Sequence record: NC_054894.1 | Strand: one strand, 5' to 3' | Length of the DNA: 49,526 nucleotides | Source: Escherichia phage Henu7 | Shown: one piece after another, positions 4,590-48,088 of the stretch | Layout of the letters: each line of letters opens with the position of its first letter | Numbering within the stretch: the first letter of the stretch is position 1 | Notes under the pieces: model-generated | What the model was told of the DNA's origin: nothing | Seen by the model: only the letters and a program-made list of their open reading frames with translations | Database searches by the model: none | Made by a program: the position numbers and the translations under genes

Positions 4590-6590
4590 ATGGCAATTCC
4601 AAACATTGATAAACAGCTTTCCGCCTTGGGTGAGGCGGTAATCAAGGCAATTCAAAATCGCTTTACGTTTGGCGAAATCACCCCATACCCTTACCAGTGC
4701 GTTGCTTACACTGAGATCGCAAAACGCATGAAAAATTACGAGCATCCTTTCTTTGTGAAAGCGTCCGTATCTGCTGGCAAAACCATGATTTTTGCAATGG
4801 TAGCGGCTCAGTGCCAGAGAATGGGGCTTAAAATGATGGTTCTTGCTCGCCAGGGTGAGATCGTAGATCAGGATTCAGAGGAGATCAGTAATTTCGGCGT
4901 GCCTAACTCCGTTTACTGCGCGGCGCTGAAACTCAAGGGAGTACACTTCCCCATCGTTGTTGGTTCCGAGGGAACCGTTTCAAATGGACTCTTTAAGGCG
5001 CTTGGTGACTACGTGCCACACGTTATCGGGATTGACGAATGCCACCAAGTAGATTGGGAGGATTTAGCGGAGGCAATCGAAAACGAGGAGCCGTGGGAGC
5101 AAATGACCACGAAAAAAGGCGAGATTGTCCTGAATGGTGACGGATCCCGCGCTCTAAACAATGACGGCGAACCAATGGAGGGAACCGGACGCACGCAGTA
5201 CACGCTTATCATTCGTGAAATGCAGCGCCGATGCAAAGAGACATACGGGCATGAGTTGCGCATTTTTGGAATGACCGGATCTGAGTTTCGCGGCGTGGTT
5301 CCAATCCTGGTGGAAGATAAGCGCCAGCGCGGATTCTGGCGCGAGCAGGTAACGAACATTGATACCAACTACCTGATCAAGTTCGGCTCCGTTGTGCCTA
5401 CAAACTTTGGCTGCGTAGATGGGTTGGGTTATGACCTTTCAGAGTTCACGGCATCCAGCGAGGACGGCGTAGCAGACTTTGACCAGAAAACCCTCAGGAA
5501 GATGGAGGAGAAGATCCATAAAGATGCAACCATGACGCAAAAAATCATGGCACGCGTTCATGAGATCTGCAAAGACCGCAACGGCGTGCTGGTAACTTGC
5601 GCGGGTGAGCGTCACTGTAAAGAGGCCGCCGCCGCACTTCCGCCAGGGGCAACATACAGGATCATCACTGGCAAGACCGGAGAGAAACAACGTAAGGAAT
5701 GGTTAAAAGAGGCATTCGAGGGAAAAGTAAAATACATTTTCCAGGTTCAAGCACTAACAACTGGCGTAAACGTTCCATATTGGGATACTTCCGTTATCCT
5801 GCGCAAAATAGGATCGCTTACACTGCTGATCCAGCTTTTGGGGCGCGGTATGCGACTGTTAAAGAAATGGCACATTGAGCAAGGATTTAAAAAAGACGAT
5901 CACCTTGTTCTCGACTTTGCCGGATGTATGGACGAGTTGGGGCAACTTTACTTTGATCCTATTCTGGAACAAGCGCAGTATCAGCGCCGTGGCGACAACG
6001 GAAAAGATCCTAAATTCTGCCCTGACTGCGGCACGGAAAACTCATTCTATGCACGCCGTTGCGTTCACGTTGACGAAAACGGAAATCGCTGTGAGTATTT
6101 CTGGAAGTATCGAGAGTGCGAGGATCAGGTAGACCCGCGAACGAAAAAGGTTGTCGTTAAAGGTTGCGGCACTAAAAACGACATATCAGCTAGAATTTGC
6201 CGTTGCTGTGACGTGTCGCTTATTGACCCTAACGAAAAGTTATCCGGCAAGCACTACACTAAAAACGATTGGTGTAATGTAAAATCATTCAGAGTTGACA
6301 TGACCAAAAACCAGCGCGGGATCGTGTTCTGTTATGAGCTTGAGTCTCACGGCGAAACGTTCAAAGCTTATGAGCGATTCTTCCCTGAGTCTGACAACCA
6401 GATCTGCAAGACGCTATGGAGGCAAACGGCGCTCAAGCATATTGCAGATCGCAGGATTGCAGGTGTTACTGCGAGCTATCGCAACGCTCGCAAGATTATG
6501 CAAAACGCGCATCACATTATGGCTCCGAAACGCGTTACGCATCGCAAAAACGCGAAAGGAGAGGACATTATTTATCATCGGGAGTTTTGA
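4590..6590 (+). CDS. SF2 DNA helicase (DExH-box) with C-terminal zinc ribbons
   Basis: Walker A SVSAGKT; DECH box (GIDECHQ); Cys-rich C-terminal clusters CPDCG...C..C. Confidence 0.75.
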   Translation: MAIPNIDKQLSALGEAVIKAIQNRFTFGEITPYPYQCVAYTEIAKRMKNYEHPFFVKASVSAGKTMIFAMVAAQCQRMGLKMMVLARQGEIVDQDSEEISNFGVPNSVYCAALKLKGVHFPIVVGSEGTVSNGLFKALGDYVPHVIGIDECHQVDWEDLAEAIENEEPWEQMTTKKGEIVLNGDGSRALNNDGEPMEGTGRTQYTLIIREMQRRCKETYGHELRIFGMTGSEFRGVVPILVEDKRQRGFWREQVTNIDTNYLIKFGSVVPTNFGCVDGLGYDLSEFTASSEDGVADFDQKTLRKMEEKIHKDATMTQKIMARVHEICKDRNGVLVTCAGERHCKEAAAALPPGATYRIITGKTGEKQRKEWLKEAFEGKVKYIFQVQALTTGVNVPYWDTSVILRKIGSLTLLIQLLGRGMRLLKKWHIEQGFKKDDHLVLDFAGCMDELGQLYFDPILEQAQYQRRGDNGKDPKFCPDCGTENSFYARRCVHVDENGNRCEYFWKYRECEDQVDPRTKKVVVKGCGTKNDISARICRCCDVSLIDPNEKLSGKHYTKNDWCNVKSFRVDMTKNQRGIVFCYELESHGETFKAYERFFPESDNQICKTLWRQTALKHIADRRIAGVTASYRNARKIMQNAHHIMAPKRVTHRKNAKGEDIIYHREF

Positions 6591-6592
6591 AT

Positions 6593-7009
6593 ATGGTTAC
6601 TGACAAAGGCGATTATCTGGAATATTACGAACGGGATCCGAGCGACACACGCAAGGAGGATTCACACCAGGTTGATTGTGTGGCGTGGTTGCGCCACCAT
6701 TACCCACACTTGCTCTTTTGGCACACTGTTAATGAGGGGAGCAAGACGATCACCACCGCGCTGCGTGACGAACAGGCCGGATTGCTAAAAGGAGTATCCG
6801 ACTTTGTTATCCTGATTGGTTCTGGTAAATACCCGTTTGCAGCAATAGAGCTAAAGCAAGCCAACAAATCAGGGAAGCGCAAAGCCTCACCAGTCAGCGA
6901 TAACCAGAAAGCTTTCTTGAGCAAGGTCAGAGCGCTTGGTGGATTTGCCGCTGTGTGTTATGGCGTTAAGCAATTCAAGATTGCGATCTCAGATCTTTTA
7001 TGTGAATAG
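6593..7009 (+). CDS. VRR-NUC domain nuclease
   Basis: Start ATG 6593 with GGAG RBS right after helicase stop; motifs GVSDFVIL and AAIELK are PD-(D/E)xK-like. Confidence 0.65.
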   Translation: MVTDKGDYLEYYERDPSDTRKEDSHQVDCVAWLRHHYPHLLFWHTVNEGSKTITTALRDEQAGLLKGVSDFVILIGSGKYPFAAIELKQANKSGKRKASPVSDNQKAFLSKVRALGGFAAVCYGVKQFKIAISDLLCE

Positions 7010-7024
7010 CACTTTTTGCTAAAA
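7006..7024 (+). promoter_or_regulatory. palindromic element plus hairpin upstream of lipoprotein gene
   Basis: ATAGCACTTTTTGCTAAAA, hairpin GGCGCAAAGGAATGCGCC, CATAAT at 7044..7049, leader CAACGAAACAAAC. Confidence 0.45.
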
Positions 7025-8493: not shown

Positions 8494-8550
8494 ATGCCCG
8501 ACTAAAGTCGGGCATAATCATTTCCAACGAAAACCACTGAGGAAAACGAA

Positions 8551-16604: not shown

Positions 16605-16625
16605 TTTTAGCAAATCGTGCTATTC
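16605..16625 (-). promoter_or_regulatory. palindromic element
   Basis: Minus strand reads GAATAGCACGATTTGCTAAAA then TATCAT hexamer and CAACAAAACGAAAC leader. Confidence 0.45.
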
Positions 16626-16887
16626 AGTTCTTAACCTGGCTCATGCGATCCATTTCACGATACCAGATAACCAAATCTTCCAGCGCCAGGAACAAGTCAG
16701 CTTTCTTTGTCTCCCTGATGGTGTCACATACCAGGTTGATATCACATTCCAGCACGCCCAGGTACTCGCCATACTGACGGCAACCTTCAATGTTGTCTGC
16801 CTTGCTGGTGCGGCGATTGTTACGCTGCGCACGGCAAATCAGGCTGATGATGTTGCTGGTTTCTTTGCTGGTGATGTGATAGGTCAT
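16624..16887 (-). CDS. hypothetical protein (first gene of leftward early operon)
   Basis: Leader CGAAACGAACTGAGGAAAACGAAA-ATG, the same pattern as rightward early genes. Confidence 0.5.
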   Translation of the reverse strand: MTYHITSKETSNIISLICRAQRNNRRTSKADNIEGCRQYGEYLGVLECDINLVCDTIRETKKADLFLALEDLVIWYREMDRMSQVKN

Positions 16888-16944
16888 TTTCGTTTTCCTC
16901 AGTTCGTTTCGATGAATGCATTATGCCAAATCCAGATCACGGAG

Positions 16945-16965
16945 TTTTAGCAAAAAGTGCTATTC
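16945..16965 (-). promoter_or_regulatory. palindromic element plus CATAAT upstream of leftward early operon
   Basis: Minus strand reads GAATAGCACTTTTTGCTAAAA, then CATAAT, then leader. Confidence 0.45.
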
Positions 16966-17253
16966 AATCGGTAGTTAGATGATTTGGTGATTTTCTGACC
17001 TGCATTTTGATGGTTAGTTTGATGTGCGTCAGCTTTTGACGAGATTTGATGATTGTTGATTAGATTTGATTGAATTTGATTGTGGGAATCATCATGGTCT
17101 GACGATGCCGTTTTTGCGCTCTCGAAAACTCCGTTCTGTTATCTTCTGTTTACACTCGTTTCCTCTTGTTACCGAAAGTACGGTGGCGTAGTTTGTTCGC
17201 GTTTTTCGCGTGGCAGAAACAAAAAAAACTTTTAATCTCCCTATAAACAACTA

Positions 17254-17296
17254 ATAAAATCAATAGTTTATTTTATATATATTATATTTGTTTTCA
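17254..17296. repeat. AT-rich conserved element, copy 1 (second copy at 47770..47815)
   Basis: 17-bp identical core ATAAAATCAATAGTTTA followed by a TTTATAT(A/G)TAT-type tract. Confidence 0.7.
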
Positions 17297-17549
17297 CTAC
17301 GTTATACTTGTTCCATATGGTATGGGGTGGTTATGGGATTTTATTATTGGTGGTATTGGTTAATTTATAGGCATGTTCCGCTCAGGATGTGTGCGATTCA
17401 TCATTTCGTTGTGGTTGCTTTGGGTGACATATACATATCTATTATGGCCTCCGAAAAAACTGTAACACCGGTAACATGGAAAAAACACGTTTTGTGGTTA
17501 AGCAAATCAGCAACTTACGACAAATTTTGTTTTTCGGCTCAAAAAAAAC

Positions 17550-17578
17550 TTGTGGAAACCGATTGTAACATGCATAAT
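17550..17578 (+). promoter_or_regulatory. candidate sigma70-type promoter for rightward early operon
   Basis: TTGTGG, 17-nt spacer, CATAAT, preceded by an A8 tract; followed by CGAAACGAACAAATGGAGG leader and ATG 17611. Confidence 0.4.
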
Positions 17579-17610
17579 GCACCCCGAAACGAACAAATGG
17601 AGGTAAAACG

Positions 17611-18036
17611 ATGTCAGATCAATCATTTGGCGATCAGTTGCGTGCAGCAGCGCGAATGTTGGCGAGTGGTGAGCGTGATGAAATCATCATGACCGACTAC
17701 CAGTTACAGCAAGCGTCCGGCAGGGAGAAAATCAACCCAAGCCATATCCGTACAACTATGGCGCGAGAGGTTCGCACCCTGGGAGCTATCAGCGTGAAGC
17801 GAATCACGGATCCGATGGGGTACGTTTGCACATTCAACCCTGACCCGAAAAAGCGAGCGATTGCCAGCGACGAGCTACCAGCAATCAAGGCGCGTGCGGC
17901 TAACAAGGCACTGAAAGCAATTGCAGACGTGATGCCAAATCTCACAGACCTGGAGGGCGAGCAGTTGCAGGGCGCTATCATTGCAGTGCAGCGCTACCAG
18001 GATTTAATCAAGAAGCAAATCAAAGAGGAGGCTTAA
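17611..18036 (+). CDS. hypothetical early protein
   Basis: RBS AAATGGAGG; first ORF of the rightward early array. Confidence 0.55.
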   Translation: MSDQSFGDQLRAAARMLASGERDEIIMTDYQLQQASGREKINPSHIRTTMAREVRTLGAISVKRITDPMGYVCTFNPDPKKRAIASDELPAIKARAANKALKAIADVMPNLTDLEGEQLQGAIIAVQRYQDLIKKQIKEEA

Positions 18037-18038
18037 TT

Positions 18039-18299
18039 ATGAGCAACGAGAAAATCGATCAGCTTGTGGACGAAATCATTGAGACGCACGACTACGCCGG
18101 ATTCAACTCTATCTTTATGATATACCCTGACGAGTGCGGTGTGACAGAAAGCGAGCTTAAAGAAGCAGTTGAGCAGGTTGAGTCCGTACTCAGAACCGAT
18201 AACCCTGACGACGAAATCTTTTCATCCTTGACCGCTTGCGATGGTGGCGGAGTGTTTGCCCTGTCATTCATCAATGCGAATACGATCTTGACCGTCTGA
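18039..18299 (+). CDS. hypothetical acidic protein
   Basis: Starts 3 nt after upstream stop; acidic composition. Confidence 0.5.
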   Translation: MSNEKIDQLVDEIIETHDYAGFNSIFMIYPDECGVTESELKEAVEQVESVLRTDNPDDEIFSSLTACDGGGVFALSFINANTILTV

Positions 18300-18306
18300 T
18301 AGGTAA

Positions 18307-18325
18307 ATAGCACTTTTTGTTAAAA
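18307..18325 (+). promoter_or_regulatory. palindromic element plus hairpin plus ATAAT
   Basis: ATAGCACTTTTTGTTAAAA, hairpin TGCCCCGCGCGAGTGGGGCA, ATAAT, leader CTCAACGAAACGAA. Confidence 0.45.
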
Positions 18326-18383
18326 CTGCCCCGCGCGAGTGGGGCATAATAGCCTCAACGAAACGAATTGAGGAGATTGCAAA

Positions 18384-19273: not shown

Positions 19274-19333
19274 GCAGTTGGCACAATGAGCACGTAATGC
19301 AATTCTACCGCCAAAGGATAAAGAAAATCCTCA

Positions 19334-19352
19334 ATAGCACGAATTGCTAAAA
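19334..19352 (+). promoter_or_regulatory. palindromic element plus hairpin containing TATAGT
   Basis: ATAGCACGAATTGCTAAAA, hairpin GGGGTTGCGC-TATAGT-AACCCC, leader ATCGAAACGAAAC. Confidence 0.45.
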
Positions 19353-21723: not shown

Positions 21724-21786
21724 ACTTTCCGCGAGGCCATTGGTATAGTGGCCTCATTGAAAGCAACCAATCAAAAGGAAAACGAA

Positions 21787-23754: not shown

Positions 23755-24206
23755 AATATTATGTACGCCCTACTGTGGACGGTGAAAACTTTACTGCTGG
23801 CAAGCTCTACGAGATCCAGCGTTGTTTCGGTGGCGGTCGCTTTGTCGTGCTAAACGATGCAAAGGAGGAAATCATTGTGCGGTGCGATGGTATCGCGTCG
23901 GCTCGCCTGAATTGGCGCGGGAGATTTGAGTGTGTGAGCATTCCAAGTGCGCAAGAAGCAGTTGGGTCGGCACAGCAAGCGGCGGCGCAAGCCTTTCGGG
24001 ATATGTGTAAGGGTAGCGGATGGCGCATTGAGAAAGGCGGGGTGTTTATCGCAAGCAGTAGTTTCAAGGCGGCAGATAAAGATCCAAATGTCGAAGTCCT
24101 GGAAAAGCTGCGTGAAATCCTGCGCGTACCGGATGGTGAGAACATCCTGACACATGCGAAAGTTGTGCGCGTGCTGGCTGACGGGTTAATCAACCTCCAA
24201 AAGTAA
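23751..24206 (+). CDS. hypothetical protein
   Basis: ATG 23751 overlaps upstream stop (ATGA). Confidence 0.5.
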   Translation: MKYYVRPTVDGENFTAGKLYEIQRCFGGGRFVVLNDAKEEIIVRCDGIASARLNWRGRFECVSIPSAQEAVGSAQQAAAQAFRDMCKGSGWRIEKGGVFIASSSFKAADKDPNVEVLEKLREILRVPDGENILTHAKVVRVLADGLINLQK

Positions 24207-24207
24207 A

Positions 24208-24226
24208 ATAGCACTTTTTGCTAAAA
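24208..24226 (+). promoter_or_regulatory. palindromic element plus hairpin containing TATAGT
   Basis: ATAGCACTTTTTGCTAAAA, hairpin GGGGTAGGCTGG-TATAGT-TACCCC, leader ATCGAAACGAAAC. Confidence 0.45.
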
Positions 24227-24282
24227 CTCCGATGGGGTAGGCTGGTATAGTTACCCCATCGAAACGAAACGGAGATATCAAA

Positions 24283-26280: not shown

Positions 26281-26811
26281 ATGAGCAGAGAAGAAAAGCA
26301 AAAGCCATTCACGGCTTACAATTTCAAGAAGCTATATAACAAGCAATATGGCGACATTGCCACGTTAGGCAAGCAACACCGATACACGCCGGAGCAGGTT
26401 TTCAATCTTGCGGTCAAATACTTTGAATGGGCGGAATCCAATGCACTAAAGGCGGCTGAATCTTCATCGTTCCAGGGTCGCACGTACCAGGATGAAGTAA
26501 ACAAGCCACGCGTTTTCACGTTCAACGGTCTGCGCCTGTTTTGCGGCTGGTCGCGCTGTGCTATGGAGAAATGGAAGAAAGAGCCTGGCTTCTCTGAGGT
26601 CATGGAGTTTATCGAATCTGTGATCTATGAGCAGAAATTCCAGCTTGCGGCTAACGGCGTGATTAACGCTGCATTCATCGCCAAAGACTTGGGGGTTGAT
26701 CAGCCGACGCAAATCAACGTTAGCGCAAACTCCGAGTCAAGCGCTGCAATCGCAGAGGTTGGGGCTGATGAAGTGCGCGAGGCGGTTCGTGATATCCTGG
26801 CGGAGATCTGA
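26281..26811 (+). CDS. terminase small subunit
   Basis: Position directly before the large terminase; RBS GAGGAGG; ORF trimmed to ATG 26281; N-terminal DNA-binding-like region. Confidence 0.55.
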   Translation: MSREEKQKPFTAYNFKKLYNKQYGDIATLGKQHRYTPEQVFNLAVKYFEWAESNALKAAESSSFQGRTYQDEVNKPRVFTFNGLRLFCGWSRCAMEKWKKEPGFSEVMEFIESVIYEQKFQLAANGVINAAFIAKDLGVDQPTQINVSANSESSAAIAEVGADEVREAVRDILAEI

Positions 26812-26813
26812 TT

Positions 26814-28385
26814 ATGCTTATATGGGAAGATTTAACAGTGGCGCAGAAACGCGCCATTAAAGAAATGAGTGAATACTCTTTTGAGAAGATGATCCGAATC
26901 TGGTTCCAGTTGCTACAGGGTCAGAAATTCCTGGGTAACTGGCATTTCAGTTATTTGTGTCACGAGGTGGAGAAAATCATTTCCGGCGAGTCGCAAAACG
27001 TGATCTTTAACATCACGCCAGGCTCAGGCAAAACTGAGGTTTTCTCGATCCATATGTCGCCCTATGCGTCACTGAAAAGCAGGAAGGTGCGAAACCTCAA
27101 CCTGTCATTCTCTGATGGGCTTGTCCAGCAGAACAGCAACCGGATAAAAGAAATTATAGGCTCTCCAGAGTGGCAAGAGTTATGGCCTGGCAAGCTGGCA
27201 AAAGCAAGCGCAAAAGATCTGATTGTTCAGGACGGCAACGGCAAGGTTAAATTGCAGGTCAACTCTCGCTCCATCGGCGGCCAGGTAACGGGTTTGCGTG
27301 GCGGCTATATGGATGATGGATTTACCGGAATGTTGGTACTTGACGATCCAGATAAACCTGACGACATGTTTTCAAAGGTGCGGCGCGAAGCGATTCACAA
27401 CCGCCTAAAAAACACCGTCCGATCTCGTCGAATGAAGGACACAACGCCTATCGTGATGGTTCAGCAGCGGCTACACGTCAACGATTCGACGTGGTTTATG
27501 ACGAGCGGCGGCATGGGCGGCATTGAGTTTAAAGTTGTGAGCATTCCGGCGCTGGTCACGAAAGAGTATGGCGATTCGCTCCCTGATTGGTTAAAACCAG
27601 AGTTTGAGCGTGACGTGCTGAATAGCGATCCAGTTTACATTGACGGCGTGGCGCACTACTCATTCTGGCCTGCAAAGGAGAGTGCAAAGGACTTGCTCTC
27701 GCTACGCGAAGCTGATCCATATACTTTTGCGTCTCAGTACCAGCAGCAGCCAATAGCGCTGGGTGGCAACGTATTCAAGGTGGATTGGTTCCAGTTTTAC
27801 GGCGACGGCGAGAAATGCACGCTGCCTAAACCGGATCGCTTTGAATATACGTTTATCACTGGCGATACTGCGCAGAAAGCCGGAGAGCTTAACGACTACT
27901 CTGTTTTCTGTTATTGGGGCATGTTCAAGAATCGCGTTTACTTCATTGACGGCATCCGTGGAAAGTGGGAGGCTCCAGAACTTGAAACCAACTTCAAGGC
28001 GTTTGTCAATCAATGCTGGAAGCGTAATAAAGAGTGCGGAAGCTTGCGACGGATCCACATAGAGGACAAAGCGAGCGGTACGGGTCTGATTCAGGGGGCG
28101 CAAAAGAGCTTACCTATTGATATAAATCCCGTTCAGCGAAGCACGGACAAAGTTACCCGCGCAATGGATGCCGCGCCAGTTATGCGAGCAGGACGCGTTG
28201 CGCTGCCAGAGAGTCACCCGATGTTAAACGAGATTCTCGCAGAGGTAGCAGCTTTCACTTTCGACGACTCGCACCCGAACGACGATATCGTAGATAACAT
28301 CGTTGATGCTGTTAACGTTGAAATGAACCTGGCAGACGATCCAGTAGCGCGAATGAAAAAGCTTGCTGGGCTACGGAAGAAATAG
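26814..28385 (+). CDS. terminase large subunit
   Basis: 523 aa; P-loop-like ITPGSGKTE; acidic nuclease-type C-terminal half; followed by portal gene. Confidence 0.75.
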   Translation: MLIWEDLTVAQKRAIKEMSEYSFEKMIRIWFQLLQGQKFLGNWHFSYLCHEVEKIISGESQNVIFNITPGSGKTEVFSIHMSPYASLKSRKVRNLNLSFSDGLVQQNSNRIKEIIGSPEWQELWPGKLAKASAKDLIVQDGNGKVKLQVNSRSIGGQVTGLRGGYMDDGFTGMLVLDDPDKPDDMFSKVRREAIHNRLKNTVRSRRMKDTTPIVMVQQRLHVNDSTWFMTSGGMGGIEFKVVSIPALVTKEYGDSLPDWLKPEFERDVLNSDPVYIDGVAHYSFWPAKESAKDLLSLREADPYTFASQYQQQPIALGGNVFKVDWFQFYGDGEKCTLPKPDRFEYTFITGDTAQKAGELNDYSVFCYWGMFKNRVYFIDGIRGKWEAPELETNFKAFVNQCWKRNKECGSLRRIHIEDKASGTGLIQGAQKSLPIDINPVQRSTDKVTRAMDAAPVMRAGRVALPESHPMLNEILAEVAAFTFDDSHPNDDIVDNIVDAVNVEMNLADDPVARMKKLAGLRKK

Positions 28386-28400
28386 CACGAATTGCTAAAA
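28382..28400 (+). promoter_or_regulatory. palindromic element between terminase and portal genes
   Basis: ATAGCACGAATTGCTAAAA, then terminator-like hairpin GGCTGGACTTTTCCAGCC plus T-run at 28413..28440. Confidence 0.4.
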
Positions 28401-28456
28401 GCGTGTACAATGAAGGCTGGACTTTTCCAGCCTTTTTTATTATGGGAGATCAGATA

Positions 28457-47581: not shown

Positions 47582-47769
47582 AATGCCACCTCTCTAGTTT
47601 GCTTATTAAGTGCATTTAATATACAGGCGCGGCGTAATCATTTCAATGGCAAATGCAAAACCTTACCTTGATTGTTCTTTTTGTTTCTCGATGTTCTCTA
47701 TTGCGCCCACCGCAGAATCGCACAACGTTTCAGAACAGAAAAAACAAAATAAATCATCTATAATATATA

Positions 47770-47815
47770 ATAAAATCAATAGTTTAGTTTATATGTATTT
47801 GTATATTGTTATTTA
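47770..47815. repeat. AT-rich conserved element, copy 2
   Basis: ATAAAATCAATAGTTTA identical to 17254..17270, followed by a similar TTTATATGTATTTGTATATTGTT tract. Confidence 0.7.
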
Positions 47816-48030
47816 TTGTTTCCAGTGTTTCAGTGTTAATTGATGTACTGGCTTTCTTTAGTCTTGATATCTCTATTATCCATTTGATGTGTGTATTTAT
47901 ATAAACCCCACCGCAAATCCGTGAACAATGAAACAAAAAATAACGACGTTTAAAATCATTCACTTAAGAGCTGATTTTGTTATCGAGGTTGAAAGATGTG
48001 TTTCGAGAACAGAAAAAACAATTGAAGGTA

Positions 48031-48058
48031 TTGACTAAACGCCACAAATGGCTACAAT
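48031..48058 (+). promoter_or_regulatory. candidate sigma70 promoter for recombination operon
   Basis: TTGACT, 16-nt spacer, TACAAT, about 30 nt upstream of RBS CAGGAG and ATG 48089. Confidence 0.5.
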
Positions 48059-48088
48059 GCACGTATACCAACACACAGGAGCGAAAGA

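Follow-up and report, generated by a model that had tools for sequence, protein, structure and literature searches.

A candidate packaging-start and divergent early-control region in the genome of the T1-like Escherichia phage Henu7

The gap at 16888-17610 and its counterparts in T1-like phages

Escherichia phage Henu7 (NC_054894.1) carries a gap of 723 bp, from position 16888 to position 17610, between the ATG of a leftward gene (16885-16887) and the ATG of a rightward gene (17611), and we have analysed the sequence elements of this gap and their probable roles. The window used in the analysis, 49,526 nucleotides in length, is the complete 49.5-kb genome of this T1-like phage (Drexlerviridae, subfamily Tempevirinae, genus Henuseptimavirus). 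The gap region is 96% identical to its counterparts in Escherichia phage IsaakIselin and Enterobacter phage AS5, and we read the Henu7 gene order from the annotation of AS5, which is near-collinear. By that order, a block of small early genes read leftward reaches 16887, and a rightward run of small genes extends from 17611 to the small terminase gene (26281-26811) and the large terminase gene (26814-28385, annotated in AS5), followed by the genes for head and tail; the genes for recombination, primase, helicase and lysis continue across the genome ends.

An earlier note on this DNA had described a long, non-coding, divergent control region at this position. That description is supported by the present work: all of the words and repeats which the note listed are present in the sequence, and the gap region is real, non-random and functional. 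The following elements were distinguished from left to right.

16888-16944, minus strand: leader and -10 of the putative leftward promoter, with TGgCATAAT (CATAAT at 16920-16925), the leader box CGAAACGAAC at 16902-16911 and a Shine-Dalgarno sequence before the ATG at 16887
16945-16966, minus strand: 22-bp family repeat, TGAATAGCACTTTTTGCTAAAA on the minus strand, ending exactly 19 nt upstream of the -10 hexamer
16975-17095, plus strand: short-repeat array, a candidate packaging (pac) recognition site, with TTGAT/TGATT words throughout and ending in TGTGGGAATCA
17096-17215, no strand assigned: conserved spacer, with an inverted GTAACA box (TGTTAC, 17167-17172), two small dyads and the junction described below for phage Samwise (at about 17140)
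17216-17300, plus strand: A-rich box and AT block, with AGAAACAAAAAAAAC, an A8 tract at 17221-17228, TATAAA at 17242-17247, AATCAATAGTTTA at 17258-17270 and a (TA)n run; 8% variable sites
17301-17440, no strand assigned: conserved middle segment, with words beginning TTGTTCCATATGGTATGGGG, then GGTATTGGTTAATT and TTCCGCTCAGGAT; related words occupy the same place in phage TLS and other lineages
17441-17537, plus strand: operator-like boxes, with CCTCCGAAAAAAC, tandem GTAACA at 17462-17467 and 17471-17476, then AAATCAGCAACTTA
17538-17610, plus strand: putative rightward early promoter and leader, with an A8 tract at 17541-17548 (UP-like), TTGTGG at 17550-17555 and CATAAT at 17573-17578; 10% variable sites

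Sequence comparisons lead us to favour, with moderate confidence, a reading of this gap as the packaging-start and early-control region of a T1-like phage, composed of 3 separable modules. Packaging was not among the functions that the earlier note suggested. For T1 and TLS, the outline of such an identity, a pac and divergent early-promoter region, is known already; what is added by the detailed anatomy reported here and by the duplicated AT-rich module with its IHF core is testable detail and no new kind of element. Sequence anatomy, conservation, homology and paralogy were computed directly, and the TLS pac end, which falls at the homologous spot, was mapped by others. From these data we infer binding of terminase to the array, binding of IHF and of a regulator elsewhere in the gap, and promoter activity in Henu7.

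For comparison, 80 loci round small-terminase homologues were fetched, and in 45 distinct ones among them the gap was located by the switch from leftward to rightward copies of the 22-bp repeat. The gap architecture recurs across these 45 loci, and most of them have one layout, in the order: last leftward 22-bp repeat, short repeats, spacer, A-rich box, AT-rich block, GT(G/T)AACA boxes, promoter and first rightward gene. The short repeats are lineage-specific, cover about 110-130 bp, are built from GATTG/TGATT, GGAATA or AATCA words, and are mostly closed by a G-rich box. T1-type loci depart from this order in that their intact 22-bp repeat stands on the right-hand side of the array.

One relative of Henu7 separates the 2 halves of the gap. 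Klebsiella phage Samwise (L097, OY639337) is a natural recombinant, with a junction equivalent to about position 17140. To the left of the junction, Samwise agrees with Henu7 at 95% identity over the leftward genes, their promoter and the array, and to the right (Henu7 17141-18295) it carries another allele of the AT module, the rightward promoter and the first 2 genes, with GGAACA boxes and a TTGACA-17-CACAAT promoter. Because the junction splits them in this way, we regard the 2 halves of the gap as separable modules.

The short-repeat array and the start of packaging

On the plus strand of the array, TTGAT occurs at 17007, 17019, 17046, 17056, 17066 and 17076, GATTTGAT at 17043 and 17063, and TTTGATG at 17006, 17018 and 17045. 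The genome has no other TTGAT cluster as dense, and this one is unique: one 120-bp window holds 6 copies (they span 17007-17080, or ~75 bp), as against 3 in the next densest window. Tandem Repeats Finder reported periods of 5, 10 and 20 for the segment 17042-17082. Within the array core (17035-17090), TTGA(T/C) words start at 17036, 17046, 17056, 17066 and 17076, that is, exactly 10 bp apart and therefore on one face of the helix; the lag-10 autocorrelation of the core has a z value of 4.4, and lag 10 is also the lag most consistently enriched in the arrays of other lineages. The clustered TTGAT-type repeats to which the earlier note drew attention are non-random. No segment of the gap is more variable than the array, in which 33% of sites differ among 7 close relatives, and the array is 24% identical to the array of a more distant locus (L012), for which the adjoining spacer is 72% identical.

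The homologous arrays of 2 other phages lie at the starts of their sequence records. Position 1 of the TLS record (AY308796), which starts with AGATTTTGTGATTGAAATTGATTTGATTTGATTAGATTTGAG and ends with GATGATGATTGATGTGTG, falls inside a TTGAT array homologous to that of Henu7, and position 1 of the T1 record (AY216660) falls inside the homologous array of T1. The TLS pac was located experimentally through a submolar pac-HindIII fragment of ~6 kb and an EcoRV sub-fragment of ~2.7 kb, and the exact base was picked by its likeness to the pac of phage P22 (PMC11447400). We found an EcoRV site at 2733 and a HindIII site at 5876 of the TLS record, and because these positions match the fragment sizes, the TLS pac end lies at the array within the resolution of the gel, with packaging proceeding rightward. 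For T1-like phages in general, pac has been placed within this untranslated region (SU57 paper, PMC7718038). The Henu7 small terminase (26281-26811) matches PF16677 (GP3_package, the P22 gp3 family) at 8.5e-14.

Since short phased repeats, fast evolution and a mapped pac end coincide in this one segment, the array is probably the recognition site of the small terminase. An oligomeric small terminase of the P22 gp3 family would bind the array at 16975-17095, the large terminase would make the first cut within it or close to it, and headful packaging would then proceed rightward via the small-gene array to the terminase and structural genes.

The closest known counterparts of this arrangement are those in TLS and T1. 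In both phages the pac region lies, as in Henu7, between leftward early genes and a rightward array of small genes leading to the small terminase; the order of 22-bp repeat, short-repeat array, AT block, GTRAACA boxes and sigma-70 promoter (P01) is the same, the small terminase belongs to the same family, and the GenBank records open inside the array. The repeat words are specific to the lineage, the TLS array being very similar to the TTGAT array of Henu7 and that of T1 consisting of GGAATA and GATTG words. The papers available to us do not describe the phasing at 10 bp, the IHF core, the boxes that resemble operators or the second copy at the exonuclease operon.

Several other phages offer partial parallels. 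Repeated terminase-binding boxes are found at pacL and pacR of SPP1, at pac of P1 (hexamer repeats with an IHF site) and at cosB of lambda (R sites with the IHF site I1). By analogy, the short, helically phased repeats of Henu7 would bind an oligomeric small terminase, with a site for a bending protein nearby. Henu7 differs from these 3 systems in the family of its small terminase (gp3/PF16677) and in the placement of its IHF core, which stands ~170 bp away from the array, not within it, and is also present at a locus that is not a pac; it differs further from P1 in that its repeats do not contain GATC, so that a Dam control of the P1 kind is not evident. The pac of P22 is a single asymmetric site of 22 bp within gene 3. 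Henu7 and P22 have small terminases of the same Pfam family, and the Henu7 array contains AGATTT, part of the P22 pac core; in contrast to P22, the Henu7 site is repeated rather than single and lies 9.2 kb from the small-terminase gene. We have dropped the likeness to P22 pac as evidence because it is at chance level, AGATTT occurring 42 times in the genome. The best 22-mer match to P22 pac in Henu7, 16/22 on the minus strand, is at 17606-17627, over the start codon of the first rightward gene. It lies outside the array, and with ~0.35 such matches expected by chance (an estimate), we treat it as a coincidence.

GATC occurs 320 times in the genome, as against ~193 expected from its length, and once in the gap (at 16935), as against ~4.7 expected at the genome density. 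AS5 and IsaakIselin, both near-collinear with Henu7, are annotated with a Dam methyltransferase and a Dcm-like methyltransferase. GATC sites adjoin the record start in the arrays of T1 and TLS, and the Henu7 array is without them. Also, a 51.6-kb metagenome contig of a near-identical phage (L009/L018, IMGVR_UViG_3300045988_043925) stops within the gap, at 136 bp from the start of the first rightward gene, which may be only an assembly break.

Promoters, operator-like boxes and the duplicated AT-rich module

The leftward side of the gap contains a 22-bp repeat that the earlier note had missed. The copy at 16945-16966 has no mismatches to the TLS 'DR' consensus aaATAGCACnnnTTGnTAAAA. In TLS this element was described as a 21-nt direct repeat, and its authors leave the function as an open question (PMC11447400). 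Read with transcription as TGAATAGCACnnTTTGCTAAAA, the repeat has 14 copies in the Henu7 genome at 3 or fewer mismatches, as against 0.01 expected, and all copies are oriented with transcription of the genes. For 18 copies (for example, 7003-7024, 16605-16626, 18304-18325, 19331-19352 and 24205-24226) the distance from the end of the repeat to a -10-like hexamer (CATAAT, TATAAT, TATAGT or similar) was determined; it is exactly 19 nt in 14/18 and 20 nt in 2 more. With this fixed spacing, the repeat holds the place of a -35 and UP element, and we take this as an argument for the upstream half of a phage-specific promoter and against a 'stoperator'. A TAGCA-N5-TGCTA dyad within the repeat suggests a dimeric binder. 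By the same pattern, the copy at 16945-16966 and the TGgCATAAT sequence appear to constitute the leftward promoter of the gap (16888-16966), which would drive the leftward early genes from an extended -10. An analogy, and no more than that, is offered by the middle promoters of phage T4, in which a phage-specific box (the MotA box) replaces the -35 at a fixed distance from a normal -10, as the Henu7 repeat does at most transcription units. The Henu7 repeat differs from the T4 box in sequence and in position, spanning about -53 to -32, and we identified no MotA or AsiA homologue in Henu7.

Most promoters with the 22-bp repeat have a GC-rich dyad between the repeat and the -10, or round the -10, such as GAGGCCAttggtatagTGGCCTC; examples are at 8494-8520, 18326-18350, 21724-21760 and 24227-24260. 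A shared leader box, CGAAACGAA, opens many of the transcripts expected from these promoters. One copy at 28379-28430, immediately ahead of the portal gene, overlaps the large terminase gene at its end and is followed by a terminator-like hairpin, GGCTGGActtttCCAGCCtttttt, instead of a -10 at 19 nt.

The rightward side has a promoter candidate that the earlier note had proposed, TTGTGG-N17-CATAAT, and the comparative data lend it support: it is nearly invariant in 8 relatives and homologous to P01 of TLS (523-549). It agrees with 8 of the 12 sigma-70 positions and is 32 nt before the ATG at 17611. The 17-nt spacer holds a GTAACA word (17565-17570), the leader box CGAAACGAAC is at 17585-17594, and GGAGG precedes the ATG. 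According to the TLS authors, only 3 sigma-70 promoters were predictable in that phage, among them P01 and P51, the latter lying in the counterpart of the second gap described below (PMC11447400). The rightward promoter differs from the leftward one in having an A8 tract and TTGTGG in place of the repeat; the -10 and leader unit GCATAATGCA...CGAAACGAAC is common to both, which explains the inverted repeats that flank the gap, and this unit also follows many of the 22-bp repeats. In our interpretation the sigma-70 promoter, with its UP-like A8 tract, would drive the rightward early genes.

GTAACA, noted earlier as recurrent, is present in 3 copies (17462, 17471 and 17565) and one inverted copy (17167), and these boxes are conserved in 8/8 relatives. 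Their counterparts are GTGAACA (2 copies) in TLS, GATTAACAC (3 copies) in T1 and GGAACA (2 copies) in Samwise. This pattern suggests that the boxes are operators for a regulator, and a sequence-specific protein would act on them, including the copy in the promoter spacer. Both plus-strand A8 tracts of the genome (17221 and 17541) are in the gap, in agreement with the A8 tract that had been pointed out. Of TTGTGG, also listed as recurrent, the gap does contain 4 of the 15 copies on the plus strand of the genome; however, only 2 of the 4 are conserved in relatives, and the recurrence is partly due to chance.

The AT block at 17216-17300 shares a 17-mer, ATAAAATCAATAGTTTA, with a second locus. 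The 17-mer has exactly 2 copies in the genome, at 17254 and 47770, where an estimated ~0.01 recurrences would be expected by chance. The sharing that the earlier note reported is therefore borne out, and the second locus proves paralogous to all of the right-hand ~400 bp:

47582-48088, plus strand: second divergent, non-coding gap of ~500 bp, upstream of the exonuclease VIII gene

The second gap contains an A-rich box, an AT block (47741-47841), an IHF core (47774-47786), GTGAACA/GAAACA boxes, an A6 tract and TTGACT-16-TACAAT (48031-48058). Common to the 2 gaps are the A-rich box, the AT block, the 'CCnCCGAAAAAnC plus GTRAACA' boxes, the AAATCAnnnACTTA box, an A-tract and a sigma-70 promoter. 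The second gap is also found in T1 and in phage JK16, and JK16 carries the identical 17-mer. In T1 and AS5, the exonuclease VIII gene heads an exonuclease-recombinase-SSB operon. Because the right module is duplicated at this gene, the AT-rich element is not specific to packaging, and it is either a general device for early expression or an origin. In the AS5 annotation 3 small leftward ORFs (open reading frames) run across the stretch matching 47582-48088, and these are probably spurious. A scan of viral contigs for the 17-mer returned many unrelated contigs; an AT-rich word of this kind recurs by chance, and the scan was uninformative.

The 2 AT blocks are the 2 least stable duplex segments of the genome, with z values of ~5; the site that comes next, an unrelated one, reaches 3.3. 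Within the shared 17-mer, AATCAATAGTTTA matches the IHF core WATCAANNNNTTR perfectly, at 17258 and at 47774, in each case with an AT-rich 5' flank; there are only 4 IHF cores in the entire genome, and the 2 AT blocks account for 2 of them. A perfect IHF core is present at the homologous place in 10/45 loci, as against ~1% per locus by chance, and its N4 bases vary. Of the host-factor binding that had been suggested for the gap, the part concerning IHF is plausible for the AT block, where the perfect core predicts a site; the matches to Fis are too degenerate to interpret. By this reading, IHF would bend the DNA ~290 bp upstream of the rightward promoter, in easily melted DNA.

Weighing of the packaging and early-control reading

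A number of points weigh against the packaging and early-control reading, or limit the precision with which it can be stated. The putative placement of pac in Henu7 comes by homology from TLS, with the start of the T1 GenBank record beside it, and our literature search found no T1-like phage for which pac coordinates from PhageTerm have been published. The resolution of the TLS mapping is perhaps 100-300 bp, and together with the chance-level likeness to P22 pac, this means that the cut could fall anywhere in the left half of the gap. Across the 45 loci, array similarity tracks that of the neighbouring spacer (rho 0.76) more than that of the small-terminase N-terminus (rho 0.39), in comparisons of low-complexity alignments with a high baseline. 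The 7 GenBank records with a small terminase at least 93% identical to that of Henu7 are exactly the 7 that share its array; this co-occurrence is confined to one genus. The terminase/array cases of loci L021/L023 are compatible with covariation and confounded by phylogeny, and in some lineages nearly identical small-terminase N-termini are paired with different arrays. With regard to the right half of the gap, T1-type and Webervirus-type loci are without the IHF core, and our display of IHF-site conservation was built from loci chosen for their IHF match, so that there is some circularity in the invariance seen at the specified bases. The rightward promoter has a weak -35, and because TTGTGG matches only 3/6 of TTGACA, a generic promoter scan did not call TTGTGG-N17-CATAAT; our literature search found no transcription start data for any T1-like phage.

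Of the alternatives, a replication origin, which the earlier note had suggested, deserves the most weight, and we consider it unlikely. In its strong form the TTGAT array would be a set of iterons next to an IHF/AT unwinding element; in its weak form only the AT/IHF modules at 17216-17300 and 47741-47841 would be origins, perhaps activated by transcription, and the array would be pac. The order of repeats, spacer, IHF core and AT run does resemble that of iteron plasmid origins such as R6K gamma and pSC101, and an AT-rich, meltable segment with an IHF core near repeats and promoters also recalls the promoter-plus-unwinding origins of T4 and T7; both AT blocks combine the least stable duplex with a perfect IHF core, and conservation within the gap is highest at the AT block, which is kept in both gaps across genera. 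No origin was found in TLS by its authors (PMC11447400), and our literature search found no paper that maps one. The details of the array do not, however, fit iterons. Its units are 5-10 bp rather than ~20 bp, it is the most variable segment of the gap, and it is missing from the paralogous second gap; it coincides instead with the mapped TLS pac end and with the T1 record start. A scan revealed no DnaA box, and no adjoining gene could be recognised as an initiator: with Pfam and PHROGs the flanking genes gave no initiator domain and no function (DUF7174 and PHROGs without an assigned function), and a PDB sequence search gave none for the first rightward gene. Furthermore, the GC skew follows the direction of transcription only. 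The AT/IHF blocks do have the properties of unwinding elements, but sequence alone does not separate an origin from a bent element upstream of a promoter, a consideration that bears on the weak form in particular.

A purely transcriptional gap, in which the array would consist of sites for a phage or host regulator or of decoy -35-like TTGAT words, with pac elsewhere in the gap or the genome, seems to us more improbable still. TTGAT does resemble the first 5 bases of TTGACA, the array lies between 2 promoters in a gap with many conserved operator-like boxes, and the TLS mapping is coarse. Yet the paralogous promoter module of the second gap has no such array, the array recombines independently of the rightward promoter module, and it diverges rapidly while the promoters are conserved; moreover, the TLS pac end and the T1 record start both fall inside the array. 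We regard it as very improbable that the gap encodes a small RNA, as the earlier note had suggested, a structured leader RNA or an unannotated small protein. In favour of such a product, a TATAAT-like box precedes the AT block in many lineages. However, a search of the window against Rfam at the gathering threshold gave no match (the best relaxed match scored 19 bits, as against a threshold of 100), and the predicted folding of 17095-17250 and 17290-17545 was no better than that of shuffled sequences (z = 0.5). The view that no convincing ORF lies in the gap also holds, and the gap is non-coding; annotators differ on small ORFs there or call none, such ORFs being annotated in AS5 and in phage BubbaBully. 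The sole ORF common to close relatives, 17080-17235, is retained in most of them. Against its being a gene, its substitutions at codon positions 1, 2 and 3 number 14, 11 and 5, the reverse of a coding pattern; it encodes 51 amino acids in Henu7 and 96 in AS5, although the 2 genomes are 96% identical; no Shine-Dalgarno sequence precedes it; and the relatives differ by single-base insertions or deletions. On the codon-position pattern and the inconsistent length we reject the small ORFs of the gap as genes.

We therefore retain the reading of the gap as a packaging-start and early-control region, and add one proposal that we hold doubtful: that the 2 paralogous AT/IHF modules are the replication origins of T1-like phages, the first of them lying beside a new type of pac for gp3-family terminases, namely a 10-bp-phased TTGAT array 9 kb from the terminase gene. 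If this were true, each AT/IHF origin would precede a canonical sigma-70 promoter, of which there are few, by ~260-290 bp, and the phage helicase and primase would gain access to a (TA)n segment opened by IHF bending and by early transcription close by.

Although T1 is a classic among phages, the signal for its packaging, its origin and the logic of its promoters have never been defined at the sequence level. The gap described here gives a comparatively supported list of parts, including the phased array, the duplicated IHF-type site and the operator-like boxes, all of which are testable, and such a list would be of use for the engineering of T1-like phages and for pac-based transduction vectors.

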